Part shown: positions 9,599 to 16,655 of the stretch, piece by piece
How positions within the stretch are numbered: position 1 is the stretch's first letter
Layout: every line of letters begins with the position of its first letter
Source: Dehalococcoidia bacterium
Lineage (GTDB): Bacteria; Chloroflexota; Dehalococcoidia; GIF9; AB-539-J10
DNA: 34,639 nucleotides
Assembly: GCA_030603265.1 (NCBI GenBank)
Contig: JAUVYD010000001.1
Span: 1 to 34,639 of the forward strand
Direction of reading: 5' to 3'
The notes under the pieces: generated by a model
The model's input: only the letters and a program-made list of their open reading frames with translations
Database searches by the model: none
What the model was told of the DNA's origin: nothing
Made by a program: the position numbers and the translations under genes

Positions 9599-10333
9599 GT
9601 GGATACACTGGTAACGTCGAACAACCTTCTGTTCCTTGCCTTCGTGCTGGCGGACCTGGGTCTCGCAGTGCTTGTATTCAGGTTCTTTGGCAAGGAGGGC
9701 TTGTACGTCCTCGTTGTCGCGTCCGTGATTGTGGCCAACATTCAGGTAACCAAGACGGTCGTGCTTTTCGGCCTCACCGCAACGCTCGGCAACGTCCTGT
9801 ACGGGAGCACGTTCTTCGCCACCGACGTCCTCAGTGAGGTGTACGGCAAACGGGAGGCTCGACGAAGTGTCTGGCTCGGCTTTGTTGCCATGGGACTGGT
9901 TGTTGTCTGGATGCAGTTCGGCCTTGGATTCGTGCCGGGACCCGAGGACCTGGCGCATGACTCACTGGCAACGGTTTTCGGACTGATGCCACGTGTGGCG
10001 GCCGGAAGTCTGGTCGCGTATCTCGTGGCCCAGCATCACGATATCCTGGCCTTCCATTTCTGGAAGGCCAGGACTCGGGGTCGCTTCCTCTGGCTGCGCA
10101 ATTGCGCCTCCACCATGGTGTCTCAGGCCATTGACTCAGCGCTGTTCTGTTTCATCGCGCTGTGGGGTCTGTACGACACTGGCACATGGCTGGAGATACT
10201 CGCAACAACGTACATACTGAAGTGGGTGGTTGCCTTGCTGGACACCCCGTTTATCTACCTGGCGGTTCGGCTTCACCCGCCTGGGCGGCCCGAGCCGTCC
10301 GGAGATGGTGCATTTCCGAAGGAGGTGGCATGA
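9599..10333 (+). CDS. yhhQ: Queuosine-precursor transporter (YhhQ/VUT family, DUF165)
   Basis: Six-TM protein with the family-typical ..LGNVLYGSTFFATDVLSEVYGKREARR.. and ..MVSQAIDSALFCFIA.. segments. It lies immediately downstream of tgt. GTG start. Confidence 0.78.
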   Translation: MDTLVTSNNLLFLAFVLADLGLAVLVFRFFGKEGLYVLVVASVIVANIQVTKTVVLFGLTATLGNVLYGSTFFATDVLSEVYGKREARRSVWLGFVAMGLVVVWMQFGLGFVPGPEDLAHDSLATVFGLMPRVAAGSLVAYLVAQHHDILAFHFWKARTRGRFLWLRNCASTMVSQAIDSALFCFIALWGLYDTGTWLEILATTYILKWVVALLDTPFIYLAVRLHPPGRPEPSGDGAFPKEVA

Positions 10334-11898
10334 GAATCTGCACTGTTCAGGAGATGAGAGAGCTTGATAGACGTGCGGTTGAGGAGTTCGGCCTTTCTGA
10401 GGACATCCTCATGGAGAACGCGGGCCAGGCGGTGTACGAGGTCGCGAAGGCGGAATTCGGCACGGAGGGAAGGCGCTTCGTTGTGCTCTGTGGTGGAGGC
10501 AACAACGGCGGCGACGGACTGGTCGTTGCACGGAAGTTGCACTCGGTGGGTGCCGAAGTCAGGGTCTATCTATTGGCCGACGAGGACTCGCTTCACGGGG
10601 CGGCGCGCAGAAATCTGGAGGCCGCGATGCGCGCGGGCATTCCTCTGCAGCGACTTCGCACAGTCGAGGACCTCTATCTGGGCAGGTCGGGAGATGTTCT
10701 CATTGATGCCATCTTCGGGACGGGGCTCTCGCGAAGCCCCGAGGGCCTGCACAGGGAAGTGATTGAACGCGTCAATGCGTTCAACCAGCCGATTCTGAGC
10801 GTGGACATTCCGTCCGGAGTCAATGGAGACACGGGTGCGGTGCCGGACATCGCAGTGCGGGCGACGTGTACGGTTACCTTTGGCGTGCCGAAAAGGGGAA
10901 ACCTGCTGCAACCCGGGCGGGAACTGTCGGGAAGGCTATACGTGTCGCACATCTCGTTCCCGCCGTCACTCCACTGTGCCGACAGCCAGGTTGTCACGAA
11001 TCGTCTCAGCTCCCTGTCTCCCAGGCAGGCTAAGTGCCACAAGGGCGACTTCGGTGACGTCCTGTTCGTCGCTGGTGCACGGGCCTACCTGGGTGCTCCG
11101 CTCTTCGCCTCGATGTCATTCCTGAAGGCTGGCGGAGGATACGCGCGACTCGCTACGCCTGTGTCAATCGCCCCTTTGCTGGCGTCCCGGGCGAGCGAGG
11201 TGGTCATGGTTCCTCTTCAAGAGACGGCCGATGGAAGTATTGCCCTCTCGAACCTCGATGAATTGTGTGCCCTCGCAGACAACGTCGACATGGTCGTTGT
11301 CGGCCCGGGCGTATCCCTCAACGGGGAAACACAGGAGCTTGTCAGAGGGCTTGTCTCTCGCGTCACGAAGCCCATCCTTGTTGATGGTGACGGCCTCACT
11401 GCCATAGCATCTGATGGGGAGATGGTCCGGCGGCGCGAGGCCCCCGTGGTGCTCACGCCCCACGCCGGCGAGATGTCTCGACTGCTCGGCGTCTCCGTAG
11501 CAGCGGTGGCGCAGGACAGAATCGCGGCGGTACAGGATGCCTCCCGCAGGCTGAATGCAGTGGTCCTGCTGAAGGGCTCGAGCTCTCTTGTCGCTGAGCC
11601 GGATGGCCCCGTGTCAGTCAATCTCAGCGGGAATCCGGGCATGGCAACCGCCGGCAGCGGGGATGTGCTCGCCGGGACGATTGCGGCGCTGCACGGACTG
11701 GGGCTAGGCCTCCGAGAGGCCGCAGAAGTCGGCGCATTCATACATGGCCTGGCGGGTGACCTCGCGGCTGAGGCAAAGGGGCAGGATGGTGTTGTCGCCG
11801 GTGACATCATGGAGCACCTGCCGCGCGCGATGCGACTCTACCGGGAGAGATTCCGTGAGCTGGAACGAAACTTCTGTGGGAGACTGGTCGTTATATAG
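10330..11898 (+). CDS. nnr: Bifunctional NAD(P)H-hydrate repair enzyme Nnr (epimerase + ADP-dependent dehydratase; YjeF)
   Basis: N-terminal YjeF_N domain (VLCGGGNNGGDGLVVAR..DAIFGTGL). C-terminal carbohydrate-kinase-like dehydratase domain (KGDFG..TPHAGE..GNPGMATAGSGDVLAG). The ATG at 10330 follows GGAGGTG and forms an ATGA overlap with the yhhQ stop. Confidence 0.9.
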   Translation: MRICTVQEMRELDRRAVEEFGLSEDILMENAGQAVYEVAKAEFGTEGRRFVVLCGGGNNGGDGLVVARKLHSVGAEVRVYLLADEDSLHGAARRNLEAAMRAGIPLQRLRTVEDLYLGRSGDVLIDAIFGTGLSRSPEGLHREVIERVNAFNQPILSVDIPSGVNGDTGAVPDIAVRATCTVTFGVPKRGNLLQPGRELSGRLYVSHISFPPSLHCADSQVVTNRLSSLSPRQAKCHKGDFGDVLFVAGARAYLGAPLFASMSFLKAGGGYARLATPVSIAPLLASRASEVVMVPLQETADGSIALSNLDELCALADNVDMVVVGPGVSLNGETQELVRGLVSRVTKPILVDGDGLTAIASDGEMVRRREAPVVLTPHAGEMSRLLGVSVAAVAQDRIAAVQDASRRLNAVVLLKGSSSLVAEPDGPVSVNLSGNPGMATAGSGDVLAGTIAALHGLGLGLREAAEVGAFIHGLAGDLAAEAKGQDGVVAGDIMEHLPRAMRLYRERFRELERNFCGRLVVI

Positions 11899-12190
11899 CA
11901 AGAGAGACGTGCTGGTGGGTGTGGAAGAGGACGAGGAAGGGCACTCTGGACTTGCTCGAGCGCGGTCTCGTGGTCGATTATGTGATCATGTGGCTGTGGA
12001 AGAAGGGGCTGCCAGGTCCGCGTGTGGAGGACTGCGGTGTGGGTGGGGCTGTGTCCTGGCATGCCATGTGCTTCGGGGTGCAATCCAGGGCCTTCGCCCT
12101 CCTGTCGGGCACAGCCATGTGTGGTGGCTGTCAGAGGAAGGATGCTGTGATGGAGCAGGCAGTCCCGTTCCGGCGTTCTTTGCACGTGCG

Positions 12191-12219
12191 TTGACATTCG
12201 TGAAGGAGGGAACTAGAAT
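12191..12219 (+). promoter_or_regulatory. Near-consensus sigma70-type promoter abutting the tubulin-like gene start
   Basis: TTGACA (12191-12196), a 17-nt spacer, then TAGAAT (12214-12219). The ATG at 12226 begins 7 nt after the -10. Confidence 0.55.
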
Positions 12220-12225
12220 AACGCC

Positions 12226-13398
12226 ATGAAGCTGCTGGTAATAGGACTTGGACAGTGTGGCGGGCGGATTGCTGACAGATTCGCTCGCTTGAACAAGAGA
12301 GGACATGCTCTCCGTGGGATGGACACCCTCGCCGGAGTTTTCGCAGTCAACACGGATGTTGCGGATCTCAGCGGACTGCGCACAATCAGACCTGACTACA
12401 AGCACCGCATACTCATCGGTGCGCAACGTACGAACGGCCATGGCGTGGGAAAGATCAGCGAACTGGGTGCCGAGATAGCGAACGAAGACGTCGACAAGAT
12501 AATTGACGCGATTCGTACGGCCGAAGGATTCTACGAGACTGACGCGTTCCTGCTGTGCGCCGGGGCTGCGGGTGGTACAGGGTCTGGCGCGATAGGGGTG
12601 CTGACCAAGCATCTGAAGGAGCGGTATATCGGGAAGCCTGTCTATGACGTGGTGGTCCTGCCGTTCCGCCAGGAGGAGACCACTGAGACCAGGACCATCT
12701 ACAACACGGCAACGTGCTTGAAGTCAACGTACCTGGTCGCTGACGCCGTCTTCCTGATTGACAATCAGCGTTACGTGAAGAAGGATTCCCCCGCCGAGAA
12801 CAACCTGAACACGATCAATGCGAAAGTCGCGGAGCCGTTCTATAACATGCTGTGCGCGGGCGAGGAGACCAAGAGCCGCTTCGTTGGCTCCAAGACACTC
12901 GATGCCGGAGACATCATCCAGACTCTCACCGGATGGACGGTCATTGGAGGTGGCATGTCGAGGCTGGAGCGGCGACTGCCGTTCTGTGGGCCGAAGCGCG
13001 ACTTCCGTGACAAGATGATTGAAACCAGCCGGGCCTCGCATGCGATGGATCAAGCCATAAGCGAGCTGTCAATGACGATTGACCCGAGTGATGTGGGAAG
13101 GGCTCTCTATCTCCTCACGGCCCCTGCCAAGGAGATGAGTATGGACATTCTCAAGCAGCTTGGAGACAACCTCAAGAGCCTTGCGCCAAACTCCCTCATC
13201 CGGAGTGGTGACTACCCGCGTGATAGTCGCCAGGTTGATGTCACGCTCATCATGTCAGAGATTGGCAGCATTCGTAAGATAACTGACTACTTCACCAAGG
13301 CGATTGATCTTATCTCGGTGATGAAGGCGAAACGCGGGCTTGGCTATCAGACGAGAAGGCTCGAGGAGTCCTTCGATGAGATCCCAGTTCTGCTGTGA
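12226..13398 (+). CDS. Tubulin/FtsZ-superfamily GTPase, CetZ-like (390 aa)
   Basis: T1 loop GLGQCGG (aa 7-13, nt 12244-12264). Tubulin signature GGTGSG (aa 116-121, nt 12571-12588). LIDN (aa 177-180). T7-type loop TLDAGDIIQTL (aa 224-234). The overall N-terminal layout (MKLxxIGxGQxGG...NGHGVGxxxELGAEIAxEDVD...DAFLxxxGxxGGTGSG) matches my memory of archaeal CetZ. An in-frame TAG at 12214 fixes ATG 12226 as the first possible start. Confidence 0.85.
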   Translation: MKLLVIGLGQCGGRIADRFARLNKRGHALRGMDTLAGVFAVNTDVADLSGLRTIRPDYKHRILIGAQRTNGHGVGKISELGAEIANEDVDKIIDAIRTAEGFYETDAFLLCAGAAGGTGSGAIGVLTKHLKERYIGKPVYDVVVLPFRQEETTETRTIYNTATCLKSTYLVADAVFLIDNQRYVKKDSPAENNLNTINAKVAEPFYNMLCAGEETKSRFVGSKTLDAGDIIQTLTGWTVIGGGMSRLERRLPFCGPKRDFRDKMIETSRASHAMDQAISELSMTIDPSDVGRALYLLTAPAKEMSMDILKQLGDNLKSLAPNSLIRSGDYPRDSRQVDVTLIMSEIGSIRKITDYFTKAIDLISVMKAKRGLGYQTRRLEESFDEIPVLL

Positions 13399-13433
13399 TT
13401 GACCCTTTCTTGTTGCTCTGACACAAGAGCAGC

Positions 13434-13470
13434 AGAGAGGCCCCTGGCCGGTAGAGCCAGGGGCCTCTCT
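13434..13470. terminator. Intrinsic terminator hairpin between the convergent tubulin-like gene and the hendecad-repeat gene
   Basis: Perfect 15-bp stem AGAGAGGCCCCTGGC / GCCAGGGGCCTCTCT with a 7-nt loop, followed on the + strand by GTTTTCTTG. The tail on the minus strand is weaker in U. Confidence 0.6.
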
Positions 13471-13497
13471 GTTTTCTTGAGCCCTTCGGGTTTCTGT

Positions 13498-14076
13498 CTA
13501 CCTGCGGGCCTTCGTGAACACTGTCCAGGTGCGCGTCATGGCCTCTCCGTGTGCCTGGCGGGCCTGCTTCTCGGTTTCGTCTCTGTCTTTCAGCGACTGC
13601 GCGACGACGTCGTCATACGCTTTCTTAGCCTGGGCAACGCTGTCGTCATATGCTTTGCGGACCTGCACGAGGCTCTCGTCGAAGGCGTGTTGAGCCTGAG
13701 CCGTGCCGTCTTCCATCACTTTCCTTGCCTGTGCGAGGGAGCTCTCGTAGTGGCCCCGGGCCCGTCCTGCGGCGTCCATTGAGCTCCGCCGAGCCTTGTC
13801 GAGAGCGTCCGTGTAGCTCTTCTCGGCTTTCTGCTCCTGGTCCTTGTAGGCGTTCTCCAGTTGGCGCTCCGCCTGGACGTACGCAACATAGGCTGCTACA
13901 GCACGTTGTTGGGTTTCGTCCAGGGCATCAACCTTCATTGCCTCTTCCGTGGCGGGAGGCATCTTCGCGTCATCGGGCTGCGTCTTGGCTGCTGCCGCTA
14001 TCGGAGGCCCCTTTGCGTCATCAGTCTGCGCCTTGGGTTGTGTCGCTTTCTCGCGCGCTTCGTCTACGTTGGCCAT
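13498..14076 (-). CDS. Hendecad (11-residue) repeat alpha-helical protein, 192 aa, function unknown
   Basis: The ATG at 14076 follows AAGGAGGG at 5 nt. About eleven tandem 11-residue units occupy aa 66-187 (consensus roughly AYDDSVAQAKK). The N-terminus carries a duplicated K(A/T)Q(T/P)DDAK(G/M)PP motif. No TM segment and no signal peptide. Confidence 0.7.
   Translation of the reverse strand: MANVDEAREKATQPKAQTDDAKGPPIAAAAKTQPDDAKMPPATEEAMKVDALDETQQRAVAAYVAYVQAERQLENAYKDQEQKAEKSYTDALDKARRSSMDAAGRARGHYESSLAQARKVMEDGTAQAQHAFDESLVQVRKAYDDSVAQAKKAYDDVVAQSLKDRDETEKQARQAHGEAMTRTWTVFTKARR
13507..13884 (-). repeat. 33-nt (11-codon) periodic tandem repeat region inside the 192-aa gene
   Basis: The aromatic/hydrophobic register recurs every 11 residues: Y66, Y77, Y88, (S99), Y110, M121, F132, Y143, Y154, (R165), (H176), F187. 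Confidence 0.75.
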
Positions 14077-14175
14077 CTATGCCCTCCTTTGCAGTTGTCC
14101 TTCATCGATGTCTCTTGTGTGAGAGTGTATCACGTACTGCTGGCCGAATCCCCTGATGTGGAGGCAGCGCCGGCA

Positions 14176-15738
14176 TCATTCATCTTCCTGGCTGTCATCG
14201 GACCTCTCGAACGGCCTGTCCTTCTCTGATGCGTACATCTTCGAGAGGAACTCGAGCCGCGACCGCATGTCGCGCTTTGCGGCGTGCGGCGCTGGCTTCA
14301 GTCTCGACTCGTCCGGCTCGATTCGGCTGAGGGCCTCTTCGAATAGCTTGGAGGAGGAGGGTTCGGATGGTTCTTGGGCCTCCTGGTTGACCTTCTCCGC
14401 GCCCGCCGCGGTTTCGTCAAAGACGCGAACGGCTGCGCGAGCAGCCTTGCGAGCGGTCCTGGTGGTCTCCTCGGCCTTCTTGATGGCCTCCTGGAGAACC
14501 TTTGCTGACGCGACTACAGTGTCGCGCGCTGCGGCGATTGATGCCTCGGTGGCTTCTCTCGCGACGCGTCTCGACTCCTCTGCCGCCCGCAGTGATTCGG
14601 TGCCGTTTTCCTCGGAGCGACGTACGGCCTCTGCTGCCAGCCTCCGCGCCTCCTCCTCCGCCTCGGCAGCGAGTTTCCCGATCTCTTCAGCCCGGGCTGC
14701 CGATTCCTCGGACGCCTTCAGGGCGTCTTCCGCCAGCCTCATGGCTGCCGACGTAACCTCTTCGCTGCGTCTGACGGCCTCGCGAGACGAACGCTCCGCT
14801 TCCTCGGCCTTCCCCATGGCCTCCTGCGATGCACGAGACGCGGACTCGACCGCCTCCTTGCTTGCCCTTACCGATGTTTCGATGCGGGCGACCACTTCGT
14901 GTGACGACTTGATCTGCTGGCCGGCCTCACGCTGGCTTAGCTTCCCTGCTTCTTCCGCTCGCCGAAGGGCGGTTTCAAACGCACGGCTGGACTGCGCGGA
15001 GGACGCATTCGAGGCAGCAATTGCCTCTTCGGCCCGGGCAAGCGCCTCTTCGAACGCCGCCGAAGACAGAGCGGCTGAATCGGAGGCCGACTGGAAGACT
15101 CGCTCCGCCCTTGCGACTGCCTTCTCGGATGCCTTCTCAGCGTCTCGTGACGCCTTCTCGGACGAGCGGGCGACTCGCTCGAGTGTGATGCGGGCCTCAT
15201 AAGAGGTTTTGACGGCTTCCTCAGAGGCCCGTGTGGCCTTCTGTCCCTCTTCTTCGGCGCGCGCCACCGCTTGCTGGGCGGCACGCCGGGCTTCTTCCGC
15301 CTTCTCCTGCGCACCCTGCGCAGCCTTCTCGACCCTGCCCAGCAATTTCTGAGAGGAAGAGACTGACTCCTCTACGGAGTCCATCGTCTGGTTCGCGAGT
15401 TGCTCAAGCAGGGCGACTGCCTCTTCAAATGAGCGAGCGCTCTCCTCGGCGGCCTCAGTGGACGACTGAACGGACTGCTCGGCTGCAGCGATGGCCTCCT
15501 GAGCCCTCGAGTTGGTCTCATTCACTGACTGGCTGACGGCGGACGCCTTCTTTGCAGCGTCCTCGGCCATCTGTCGCGCCTCTTGTGCCGTGACCATCGC
15601 CTCGCGGCCGATGTTCTCGATTCTGGTGACGGCCTGTCCCGAGGCCTTGCGGGACTGCTCCGCAGCCTGGCGCGCAGCCAGGTTCATCTGTTCGGCTCTC
15701 GCTACCGCCTCTTCGAAGGATGGTGACTCGCTGTCCAT
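14176..15738 (-). CDS. Ala/Glu/Ser/Arg-rich low-complexity alpha-helical repeat protein, 520 aa, function unknown
   Basis: Long ORF with its own near-consensus promoter and a GGAAGG SD. The motif F-E-(E/T)-A-(V/L)-x-(R/L)-x-E recurs at F8, F104, F229, F254 and F466. The tail is acidic (..SDDSQEDE). The antisense 348-aa ORF is a compositional shadow. Confidence 0.7.
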   Translation of the reverse strand: MDSESPSFEEAVARAEQMNLAARQAAEQSRKASGQAVTRIENIGREAMVTAQEARQMAEDAAKKASAVSQSVNETNSRAQEAIAAAEQSVQSSTEAAEESARSFEEAVALLEQLANQTMDSVEESVSSSQKLLGRVEKAAQGAQEKAEEARRAAQQAVARAEEEGQKATRASEEAVKTSYEARITLERVARSSEKASRDAEKASEKAVARAERVFQSASDSAALSSAAFEEALARAEEAIAASNASSAQSSRAFETALRRAEEAGKLSQREAGQQIKSSHEVVARIETSVRASKEAVESASRASQEAMGKAEEAERSSREAVRRSEEVTSAAMRLAEDALKASEESAARAEEIGKLAAEAEEEARRLAAEAVRRSEENGTESLRAAEESRRVAREATEASIAAARDTVVASAKVLQEAIKKAEETTRTARKAARAAVRVFDETAAGAEKVNQEAQEPSEPSSSKLFEEALSRIEPDESRLKPAPHAAKRDMRSRLEFLSKMYASEKDRPFERSDDSQEDE

Positions 15739-15802
15739 CTATGTGTCGCCTTCCGGCAGGCGTTCAGCCATCACCGAGACGCGGCTGAACGCACGCAACG
15801 GT

Positions 15803-15831
15803 ATTGTAGTTACACTCCTCGGTATTTTCAA
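15803..15831 (-). promoter_or_regulatory. Near-consensus sigma70-type promoter for the 520-aa repeat-protein gene
   Basis: The minus strand reads TTGAAA-17 nt-TACAAT. The -35 overlaps the stop codon of the nitrilase-family gene. A 9-bp hairpin (15761-15769 / 15783-15791) lies in the predicted 5' UTR. Confidence 0.55.
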
Positions 15832-16655
15832 CGAAAAGCAGGGAGTTTTCGATTATGCAGGGCGGGCAGTCGCTCGCGGACATCGGTCAACCCGCCCAGG
15901 TCGAGCTCTGCCGAGATGATGTGTTCTCCCTCCTGCGGCGCGTGGGCGAGAACTCGACCCCATGGATCGACAATGATGCTGTTTCCGTACGTTGCTATCC
16001 CCCCTGCCCCCATCCCCGCCTGTCCCAGCGCGACCACGAAGCACTGGTTCTCGATAGCGCGCGCCCGAACCAGTATCTCCCAGTGCGCCTCTCCTGTAGG
16101 AGCCGTGAATGAGGATGGGATGAACACGAGGTCCACTCCGAAGTCGGCCAGCCGCCGATACAGTTCCGGGAACCGTATGTCGTAGCAAATGGTCAGACCC
16201 ACTCTCATCCCTGCGGCCTCGGCGCACACGACATCCGTACCTGCGGTGTAGTGGCTCGATTCGGCCACCGACCTGTCTCCAATGGTGATGTCGAACAGGT
16301 GCATCTTGCGGTACGCTGCCGCGATTCCTCCCCGGGGGTCGATCAAGACCGACGTGTTGTACGGCATGGAAGCGTCCGGGTTCTGCTCGTGGACGCTTCC
16401 AGCCAGGATCCAGACTTCGCGTTCGGCGGCAACGCGCATCAGCGGCTCAAGGGCAGTGCCCGGAAGGGGCTCCGCAATGCTGCTGAGGGTGGACGAATCG
16501 CCTCTGTAGTCGAATGTCTCGGGCAGAGCGATCAGTGTGGCTCCATTCTCTGCAGCCTTCTTCACCAGGTCCACGGCATGCTGGATGTTCTGCTGCTTGT
16601 CGGGGCCGCTCGCCATCTGGGCGATTGCCACGGTCACTCGTCTGCTGGTTGCCAC
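15828..16655 (-). CDS. Carbon-nitrogen hydrolase family protein (nitrilase superfamily, omega-amidase/Nit-like)
   Basis: Glu-Lys-Cys triad contexts: LIALPETF, YRKMHLFD, TICYDIRFPE. GTG start at 16655 follows GGAAAGGAAG. Confidence 0.85.
   Translation of the reverse strand: MATSRRVTVAIAQMASGPDKQQNIQHAVDLVKKAAENGATLIALPETFDYRGDSSTLSSIAEPLPGTALEPLMRVAAEREVWILAGSVHEQNPDASMPYNTSVLIDPRGGIAAAYRKMHLFDITIGDRSVAESSHYTAGTDVVCAEAAGMRVGLTICYDIRFPELYRRLADFGVDLVFIPSSFTAPTGEAHWEILVRARAIENQCFVVALGQAGMGAGGIATYGNSIIVDPWGRVLAHAPQEGEHIISAELDLGGLTDVRERLPALHNRKLPAFR

Follow-up and report, generated by a model that had tools for sequence, protein, structure and literature searches.

The genes considered here lie in a stretch of 34,639 nucleotides (nt) of DNA from a Dehalococcoidia bacterium (GIF9; AB-539-J10), namely positions 1-34,639 of the forward strand of contig JAUVYD010000001.1 (assembly GCA_030603265.1); this whole stretch is referred to below as the window. 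On the plus strand of the window, nucleotides 12226-13398 encode a 390-residue CetZ-like member of the tubulin superfamily. Two genes on the minus strand converge on it, one encoding a 192-residue protein (p192; 13498-14076) and the other a 520-residue protein (p520; 14176-15738). The trio is bordered on one side by nnr, with YjeF_N and Carb_kinase domains, and on the other by a nitrilase-family gene (CN_hydrolase; 15828-16655, minus strand). An earlier note on this DNA, made from the sequence alone, had picked out the same three open reading frames (ORFs) between the same two flanks and had suggested that they form a filament-plus-scaffold system; the ORFs and both flanks are present as it described them. 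The trio, and the case for regarding it as a cytoskeletal module, are the subject of this report.

Conservation of the trio and its promoters

The genomes closest to the window are metagenome-assembled genomes (MAGs) of Dehalococcoidia and Dehalococcoidales, in one of which (L001) the tubulin gene is 99% identical to that of the window. The forward linkage set consisted of 80 genome loci (L001-L080) kept from a tubulin profile search, without Dehalococcoides mccartyi. All 80 are from Dehalococcoidia/Chloroflexota MAGs, a few of which have deviating bin labels but the common synteny. A gene map was obtained by ORF clustering, and a neighbour-joining tree was calculated from 101 tubulin ORFs. 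p192 turned up in 51 of the 80 loci and p520 in 54. The A-type tubulins, which make up clades I and II of the tree, adjoin partner genes in 56 of 57 cases (39/39 in clade I and 17/18 in clade II).

The order TUB> p192< p520< (TUB, tubulin gene) is kept throughout L001-L030, the exceptions being L020, which lies at a contig end, and L019, in which p192 is missing. The nnr and nitrilase-family flanks of the window are not conserved across the same loci. The genes nearest the trio belong to at least 11 families upstream and at least seven downstream, while its internal order remains constant.

The linkage was also followed in reverse. Metagenome contigs were searched with a p520 profile and with the C-terminal motif of p520 as a search pattern, which gave 213 loci. 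A convergent tubulin gene is found within 2.5 kb in all of the metagenome loci that have at least 1.5 kb of sequence beyond p520 (53/53), and p192 is present in 65 of the 66 metagenome loci with enough room for it. p520 is the more constant partner of the two. Conservation of the neighbourhood was a check that the earlier note had itself proposed for its idea, and the linkage held in both directions.

A second set of tubulins, the B-type, lies in a housekeeping array (gap>TUB>dnaX>recR). Many Dehalococcoidales carry both types (L031-L080; for example, L039:8001-13743 and L047:1306-3692), and in many of them the trio is inserted directly upstream of the B-type gene (gap> TUB-A> p192< p520< TUB-B> dnaX>); a tandem TUB-B> TUB-A> is the alternative order. 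One MAG has an A-type gene with p520 and without p192 (L058) and, on another contig, a solitary B-type gene (L075). In L045 (6764-7939), a third tubulin-like paralogue, which is highly divergent, lies between gap and the B-type gene and is the outlier of the neighbour-joining tree. The possibility that the A-type and B-type paralogues are an α/β-like pair with one dead member was considered and rejected, as both retain the T7 loop. The contigs of L045, L053 and L055 are labelled Deltaproteobacteria or Syntrophaceae; L045 and L055 show the gap-TUB-dnaX synteny of Dehalococcoidales, L053 retains just a gap fragment upstream, and all three contigs are probably mis-binned.

A promoter scan of positions 11800-16000 returned exactly two sites, compared with 0.5 +/- 0.8 expected from shuffled sequences, and each of the two stands ahead of one transcription unit. 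The tubulin promoter (12191-12219, plus strand) is of the sigma-70 type and has the sequence TTGACA-17 nt-TAGAAT. Sixteen loci with upstream DNA that cannot otherwise be aligned all have TTGACA and TA(G/C)AAT, at the same distance from the ATG codon. The -10 hexamer of the window ends 6 nt ahead of the ATG, and the tubulin mRNA is therefore probably leaderless, as judged from this spacing. A GGAGG in the promoter spacer was considered as a Shine-Dalgarno sequence and discarded, since it is lost in more distant loci while both hexamers stay.

The promoter of the p520-p192 unit (15831-15803, minus strand) has the sequence TTGAAA-17 nt-TACAAT, and the stop codon of the nitrilase-family gene upstream overlaps its -35 hexamer. 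All of the 17 loci compared have the -10 hexamer TA(C/A)AAT. The -35 hexamer is kept in the ten sequences of the clade of the window (with one substitution, in L002); L016 and L018 also have it, and the alignment does not extend to it in the remaining five of the 17 loci. Between this promoter and p520 lies a leader of some 60 nt (15739-15802, minus strand) with an inverted repeat, TTCAGCC...GGCTGAA. Among the ten sequences of the clade of the window the leader is similar in length and diverged in sequence, except in the near-identical L001 and L002, and it is longer in distant loci. The spacer between p520 and p192 (14077-14175, minus strand) contains the Shine-Dalgarno sequence of p192, AAGGAGG. 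Because no promoter or terminator was found in this spacer by the scan, p520 and p192 probably form one operon.

The two units meet at a GC-rich hairpin (13434-13470), identified by folding. The intergenic region that contains it folds with -54.2 kcal/mol (z -5.6) on the plus strand and -50.3 kcal/mol (z -5.0) on the minus strand. In seven close relatives (loci L002, L003, L004, L006, L008, L029 and L074), equally strong hairpins that differ in sequence are found in this position. A run of T residues (13470-13478) follows the stem on the plus strand only, and the minus strand is without a U-tract. The earlier note had proposed two near-consensus promoters with 17-nt spacers and one terminator shared by both units. 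The promoters are there, are the only sites in the scan and are phylogenetically conserved. The hairpin is likewise real, with termination of canonical form for the plus-strand unit and only partly so for the minus-strand unit, which qualifies the idea of a shared terminator.

Taken together, these data make a functional link between the three genes well supported, because the trio keeps its order while its flanks change and each transcription unit has a conserved promoter of its own.

The CetZ-like GTPase

The tubulin of the window matches the Pfam Tubulin domain (PF00091) with an E-value of 1.2e-32 over residues 3-183 and the CetZ_C domain (PF21011) with 44.2 bits (gathering cutoff 21.6; 1.8e-11) over residues 193-360. 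The best match in the Protein Data Bank (PDB) is CetZ1 from Haloferax volcanii (PDB entry 4b46; 6.5e-40 over the full length), followed by CetZ2 (4b45) and the CetZ of M. thermophila (3zid). A profile of the family ranks the structures in the same way (CetZ1, 3.7e-52; CetZ2, 6.1e-32; M. thermophila (Methanosaeta) CetZ, 7.5e-19), and the best matches outside CetZ are much weaker (FtsZ, 6e-13; tubulins, about 1e-7; TubZ, 9.2e-6). The homologues number more than 6,000, and the best are from Dehalococcoidia and other Chloroflexota; conservation in the family is high, with 62-99% identity in the best 120, and the CetZ_C domain is precomputed for all of the homologues listed (120/120). Assignment as an FtsZ equivalog was rejected, the score against TIGR00065 being 62.9 bits with a cutoff of 295.2, and the Pfam search gave no match to FtsZ_C. 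A separate, canonical ftsA-ftsZ pair is present in the Dehalococcoidales MAG of L049, and the context of the tubulin gene in the window is nnr and the nitrilase-family gene. By sequence criteria the protein belongs to the CetZ family; we file it as CetZ-like since it is bacterial and lies outside the canonical archaeal clade.

The existence of CetZ-like genes in Dehalococcoidia is already known (PMC9871819). Santana-Molina et al. (2023; PMC9871819) place these sequences in sparse paraphyletic groups outside the canonical clade, with a similarity to the CetZ C-terminal hidden Markov model of about 1e-10, and the CetZ_C match of the window protein agrees with this report. The same paper states that coiled-coil genes of unknown kind often neighbour archaeal tubulin-like genes. 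Its passages on the bacterial group mention that group in passing and describe no conserved partner genes, A/B paralogues, promoter or tail features.

The residues expected of an active GTPase are in place. The G-box AGGTGSG (G116-G121), of the GGGTGSG type, is invariant in 15 homologues. The T7, or synergy, loop has the sequence LDAGD (residues 225-229; 12898-12912, plus strand), located by alignment to 4b46, in which D229 aligns with E218, the catalytic residue of CetZ1; an acidic residue in this loop is required for GTP hydrolysis that depends on polymerization. D226, G228 and D229 are invariant in the same 15 homologues and are kept in both paralogue clades. As read from the alignments, no nucleotide-binding motif is disrupted, nor is the catalytic T7 loop. 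The gene is under purifying selection (dN/dS 0.04). The protein of the window, an A-type tubulin, is basic (pI 8.45), and the median pI of the A-type is 8.8.

The extreme C-terminus of the tubulin is the peptide DEIPVLL (13375-13395, plus strand), in which I386, P387, L389 and L390 do not vary over the 15 aligned homologues. The DIP(V/S)LL tail is kept in both A and B paralogues, as DEIPVLL or, in other clades, as KDIPSLL. The canonical FtsZ of L049 ends in ELDVPSFLRK, to which the (D/K)(E/D)IP(V/S)LL tail of the tubulin is closely similar, and the FtsA of this MAG carries an amphipathic, membrane-targeting C-terminal tail. In the same locus (L049:4242-9986), a B-type CetZ-like gene lies directly after rsmH-ftsA-ftsZ and ahead of nrdR, and its product ends in KNIPTLL. 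In well-studied bacteria, the C-terminal peptide of FtsZ docks FtsA and other partners. Because the DIPxLL tail resembles the FtsZ peptide of the same order, it may tether the CetZ-like filament to FtsA, and thus may bind FtsA instead of the repeat proteins.

The two partner families

p520 is rich in Ala (22%), Glu (17%), Ser (12%) and Arg (10%) and is acidic, with a net charge of -22 and a pI of 5.0 in the window and, over 54 orthologues, a median charge of -21. Its repeat unit of 25 residues (7+7+11) has the consensus S-x-E-A-V-A-R-A-E-E plus 15 further residues, and the autocorrelation of the sequence is accordingly strong at lags of 25 (z 13.0), 50 (z 9.1) and 75 (z 7.3). The predicted structure is all-helical, with five long helices (residues 8-115, 122-220, 226-264, 272-378 and 380-455) and two short ones (462-473 and 491-506), the packing of which is predicted with low confidence (pTM 0.31). 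The best-conserved parts are an N-terminal FE-AVARAE block and a C-terminal R-L-x-F-L-(S/A)-(K/R)-M-Y helix with an acidic tail. The C-terminal motif, R-L-x-F-L-(S/A)-(K/R)-M-Y-x-x-x-K (residues 494-506; 14221-14259, minus strand), was defined from the orthologue alignment; it is invariant in 13 Dehalococcoidaceae-type orthologues, and R494, L495, L498, M501 and K506 are invariant in 11 divergent ones. The gene is under purifying selection (dN/dS 0.22). A 348-residue ORF opposite the Ala/Glu-rich p520 gene (14156-15202, plus strand) was rejected as a gene; it is an antisense shadow of p520, and kindred shadow ORFs cluster over 44 loci.

p192 is predicted to consist of a disordered, variable head (residues 1-49) followed by a single unbroken helix of 138 residues (54-191; AlphaFold pLDDT >95), the predicted length of which is about 20 nm. 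Its autocorrelation peaks at lags of 11, 22, 33 and 44 (z 8.9 to 5.7), and its hydrophobic residues recur with a period of 3.667 residues (z = 12.2). The core columns are Tyr/Phe at a, a small residue at d, Leu/Val at e and Ala at h, with acidic and basic columns alongside. In 51 orthologues, the core, counted from an AYxAY motif to the C-terminus, has almost only lengths of 87, 98, 109, 120 and 131 residues. The core thus varies by whole hendecads, so that the register between the N-terminal Tyr ladder and the C-terminal tip is always preserved. This tip, W-x-(V/I)-(F/Y)-x-K plus basic residues, is found in all 51 orthologues, and the gene is under purifying selection (dN/dS 0.35). Both partner genes thus evolve quickly and are nonetheless maintained by selection. 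The earlier note had described the shorter protein as a hendecad repeat and the longer one as an Ala/Glu/Ser/Arg-rich helical protein; the 11-residue lag and 3.667-residue period bear out the former description, and the composition and predicted structure the latter.

By sequence, p192 and p520 are new families. For p520, nothing scored above threshold in Pfam or NCBIfam, the PDB profile search matched only de novo designed helical proteins, Foldseek gave no match at E <= 0.001, and a phmmer search of 1.84 billion representative proteins returned only 20 weak matches, mostly fragments. For p192, no family was found in Pfam, in NCBIfam (above threshold) or among the PDB profiles, which again gave designed helical proteins only, and a word-indexed homology search returned just seven proteins. 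Neither protein resembles Zap, EzrA or SepF proteins in sequence or in the Pfam and PDB profile searches. Several candidate relationships were set aside. The top Foldseek hits of p520 are axoneme microtubule inner proteins at E-values of 0.1-1 and TM-scores of about 0.12-0.25, which are generic matches between long helices. Phasin_2, ApoLp-III and BORCS6 appear only as sporadic compositional matches. The two proteins are not homologous to one another (hhalign probability 6.7%), nor do they share a length ruler, as their lengths do not co-vary (Spearman -0.04).

The rest of the window is chromosomal housekeeping sequence that includes ligA, tgt, a TRAP transporter, secDF, cca and pdxA. In the region 10162-10330, the nnr ORF in its longest form is too long and overlaps a Vut_1 (queT-like) gene. 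Family matches of nnr start at about residue 59 of this longest ORF, and the true start is probably the ATG at 10330.

A candidate cytoskeletal module

We consider it reasonably probable that the CetZ-like tubulin, p192 and p520 form a conserved three-gene cytoskeletal module of Dehalococcoidia. In such a module, the GTPase would polymerize into GTP-dependent filaments beneath the membrane, and these would be tethered through the FtsZ-like DIPxLL peptide, most simply to FtsA. With the tail tethered in this way, the basic, globular surface presented by the polymer would be free for the acidic p520. The opposite charges of the tubulin and p520 suggest an electrostatic component to their binding. 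p520, which would resemble an intermediate-filament-like rod, and p192, a putative hendecad coiled coil with a basic-aromatic C-terminal tip, would act on the filaments by bundling, spacing or stabilizing them or by coupling them to the envelope. For the filament-plus-scaffold idea of the earlier note, the functional link stands, on the strength of the two-way linkage and the conserved promoters; docking of the repeat proteins on the C-terminal peptide, which that note had singled out for complex prediction, now has a competitor in FtsA.

Duggin and co-workers are said to have found, in 2015, that CetZ1 controls the plate-to-rod shape transition in wall-less, S-layered haloarchaea. By analogy with haloarchaeal CetZ1, a likely role of the module would be in the control of cell shape or envelope organization in bacteria that are without peptidoglycan and have an S-layer-like wall. 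The dcw and peptidoglycan genes have been lost from Dehalococcoidales and SAR202, which retain mraZ-rsmH-ftsA-ftsZ, and the disc-shaped cells of D. mccartyi are enclosed by an S-layer-like wall (PMC10608941). Proteomic data for strain BTF08 of this species show three proteins, namely FtsZ, a tubulin/GTPase (btf_0551) and the hypothetical protein btf_0548, the gene of which lies near that of the tubulin, to be abundant in the disc-shaped cells of the pure culture and reduced or undetected in the barrel-shaped cells of a co-culture (PMC8163811).

Several observations weigh against a module of this kind. The B-type paralogues lack adjacent partners, and the A-type tubulin of L053 has neither partner nearby. 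p192 is missing from L019, L031, L058 and L069, in which p520 directly faces the tubulin gene (TUB-A> p520<), so it is not obligatory. Searches of Pfam, the PDB and Foldseek revealed no recognisable tubulin-binding or membrane-binding domain in p192 or p520. The proposed role in cell shape, finally, is drawn from the analogy with haloarchaeal CetZ1.

The same evidence was weighed under other explanations. p520 and p192 might form a nucleotide-independent coiled-coil scaffold of their own, intermediate-filament-like in the manner of FilP, Scy or crescentin, or an envelope layer, which would serve the same process without touching the CetZ-like filament; the linkage would then reflect co-regulation or common descent within a locus for cell shape. 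p520, with its non-heptad repeat and its helices of some 100 residues joined by short linkers, does resemble bacterial coiled-coil-rich cytoskeletal proteins, the tail of the tubulin already has a plausible partner in FtsA, and the two units lie on opposite strands with their own promoters. We nevertheless regard this explanation as unlikely. Whether the search starts from the tubulin or from p520, the adjacency is almost perfect over class-level divergence and amid many different flanks, which is stronger than is usual for co-functional genes, and the consistent pairing of a basic with an acidic protein would be left unexplained. p192 and p520 could, on the other hand, be negative regulators or sequestering factors, with p192 lying along the tubulin subunits in the manner of stathmin or tropomyosin and limiting or templating filament length. 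The disordered head and predicted 20-nm helix of p192 would suit such a function, as would convergent units that allow independent control of dosage. It is made improbable by the a-d-e-h hydrophobic stripe with Tyr at a, which is typical of a self-associating coiled coil, by the 1.65-nm (11-residue) steps of the p192 core, which are not multiples of the tubulin subunit repeat of about 4.3 nm, and by the dispensability of p192 in some lineages.

The remaining two alternatives detach the partners from the tubulin or reassign the tubulin itself. That the partners are phasin-, apolipoprotein- or LEA-like coating or stress proteins, adjacent to the tubulin gene by descent, could be argued from weak compositional Pfam matches to Phasin_2 (2/11 members, best 1.7e-7), ApoLp-III and Alanine_zipper and from one weak Perilipin match of a p192 orthologue. 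These matches are sporadic and under the family thresholds for the window proteins, the trio remains intact where its flanks have been replaced at least 11 times, and p520 never occurs without the tubulin in the reverse search; we judge this explanation to be quite improbable. Least credible of all, and effectively refuted, is that the tubulin is the cell-division FtsZ or a TubZ/PhuZ-type segregation motor of a mobile element. Some homologue records are named 'cell division protein FtsZ', and the B-type paralogue of L049 directly follows ftsA-ftsZ, but the protein scores far under the equivalog cutoff and a separate canonical FtsZ exists in the same order (see also PMC8163811 and PMC10608941). 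A segregation motor is equally hard to reconcile with the weak TubZ match and with neighbours that, in the window and related loci, are not TubR-like, phage or DNA-binding genes but chromosomal housekeeping genes (such as ligA, tgt, secDF, gap, dnaX and recR).

The proposed module shares traits with several known systems. With CetZ1 and CetZ2 it has in common the architecture of a Tubulin GTPase domain followed by CetZ_C, the best full-length sequence match among solved structures, the aligned acidic residue of the T7 loop, several paralogues per genome and a host that has an S-layer-type envelope and no peptidoglycan (PMC10608941). It differs in that the tubulin is bacterial rather than euryarchaeal, basic rather than acidic, ends in a DIPxLL tail and is linked to two coiled-coil genes. 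The FtsZ system likewise combines a filament with small coiled-coil or helical modulators (FtsA, ZapA/ZapB, EzrA and SepF) and has a C-terminal docking peptide, D-(I/V)-P-x-(F/L)-L, that the tubulin tail resembles, and FtsA is present in the same order; unlike FtsZ, the tubulin fails the equivalog test, has no FtsZ_C domain and is additional to a canonical FtsZ. Crescentin, FilP and Scy are similar to p520 and p192 in having a rod of long helical segments and repeats other than heptads, of 51 residues in Scy and FilP. MamJ, the adaptor of MamK, is an acidic repetitive protein linked genetically to a filament gene, as is p520; these likenesses are analogies of function. No homology to crescentin, FilP, Scy or MamJ is detectable in the Pfam, PDB, Foldseek and phmmer searches, and the filament partner here is tubulin-like, in contrast to the actin-like MamK. 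BtubA/BtubB with BtubC and TubZ with TubR (and TubY) are also bacterial tubulin-superfamily genes in small modules with a helical partner, and a further likeness is that the partner genes of Dehalococcoidales can lie between two tubulin paralogues. The tubulin is, however, far closer to CetZ, both paralogues keep their catalytic residues, there is no TPR partner like BtubC or DNA-binding partner like TubR, and the context is one of chromosomal housekeeping genes.

CetZ is not known to have been studied experimentally outside haloarchaea, nor are dedicated partner proteins known for it. Full-text searches of the literature on CetZ in Chloroflexota or Dehalococcoidia and on Dehalococcoides tubulin found no description of the trio, and the CetZ literature searched gave no report of linkage to two dedicated coiled-coil genes. 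It is possible, although we put this forward tentatively and as falling short of probable, that p192 and p520 are the first dedicated CetZ-type filament-associated proteins, prokaryotic counterparts of microtubule-associated proteins (MAPs), and that, with one or two CetZ-like paralogues, they make up a transferred archaeal-style cytoskeleton that shapes and organizes the peptidoglycan-less cells of Dehalococcoidia. An origin of the CetZ-like genes of Dehalococcoidia from archaea by inter-domain transfer is plausible by analogy, because the archaellum has passed from Euryarchaeota into the same class (PMC12488501).

A CetZ clade in bacteria that is tied to two new coiled-coil families offers candidate tubulin-associated proteins of prokaryotes. 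If they did come from archaea, as we infer, the CetZ-like genes would be, with the archaellum, a second archaeal-type cell-structure system in Chloroflexota, and the combination of a CetZ-like body with an FtsZ-like tail suggests that the filament, once transferred, was rewired to the FtsA anchor of bacteria. Members of Dehalococcoides and Dehalogenimonas are available in culture. The module would provide a testable account of the disc shape of Dehalococcoidales, an order that includes the bioremediation organism Dehalococcoides, and of their division without peptidoglycan.

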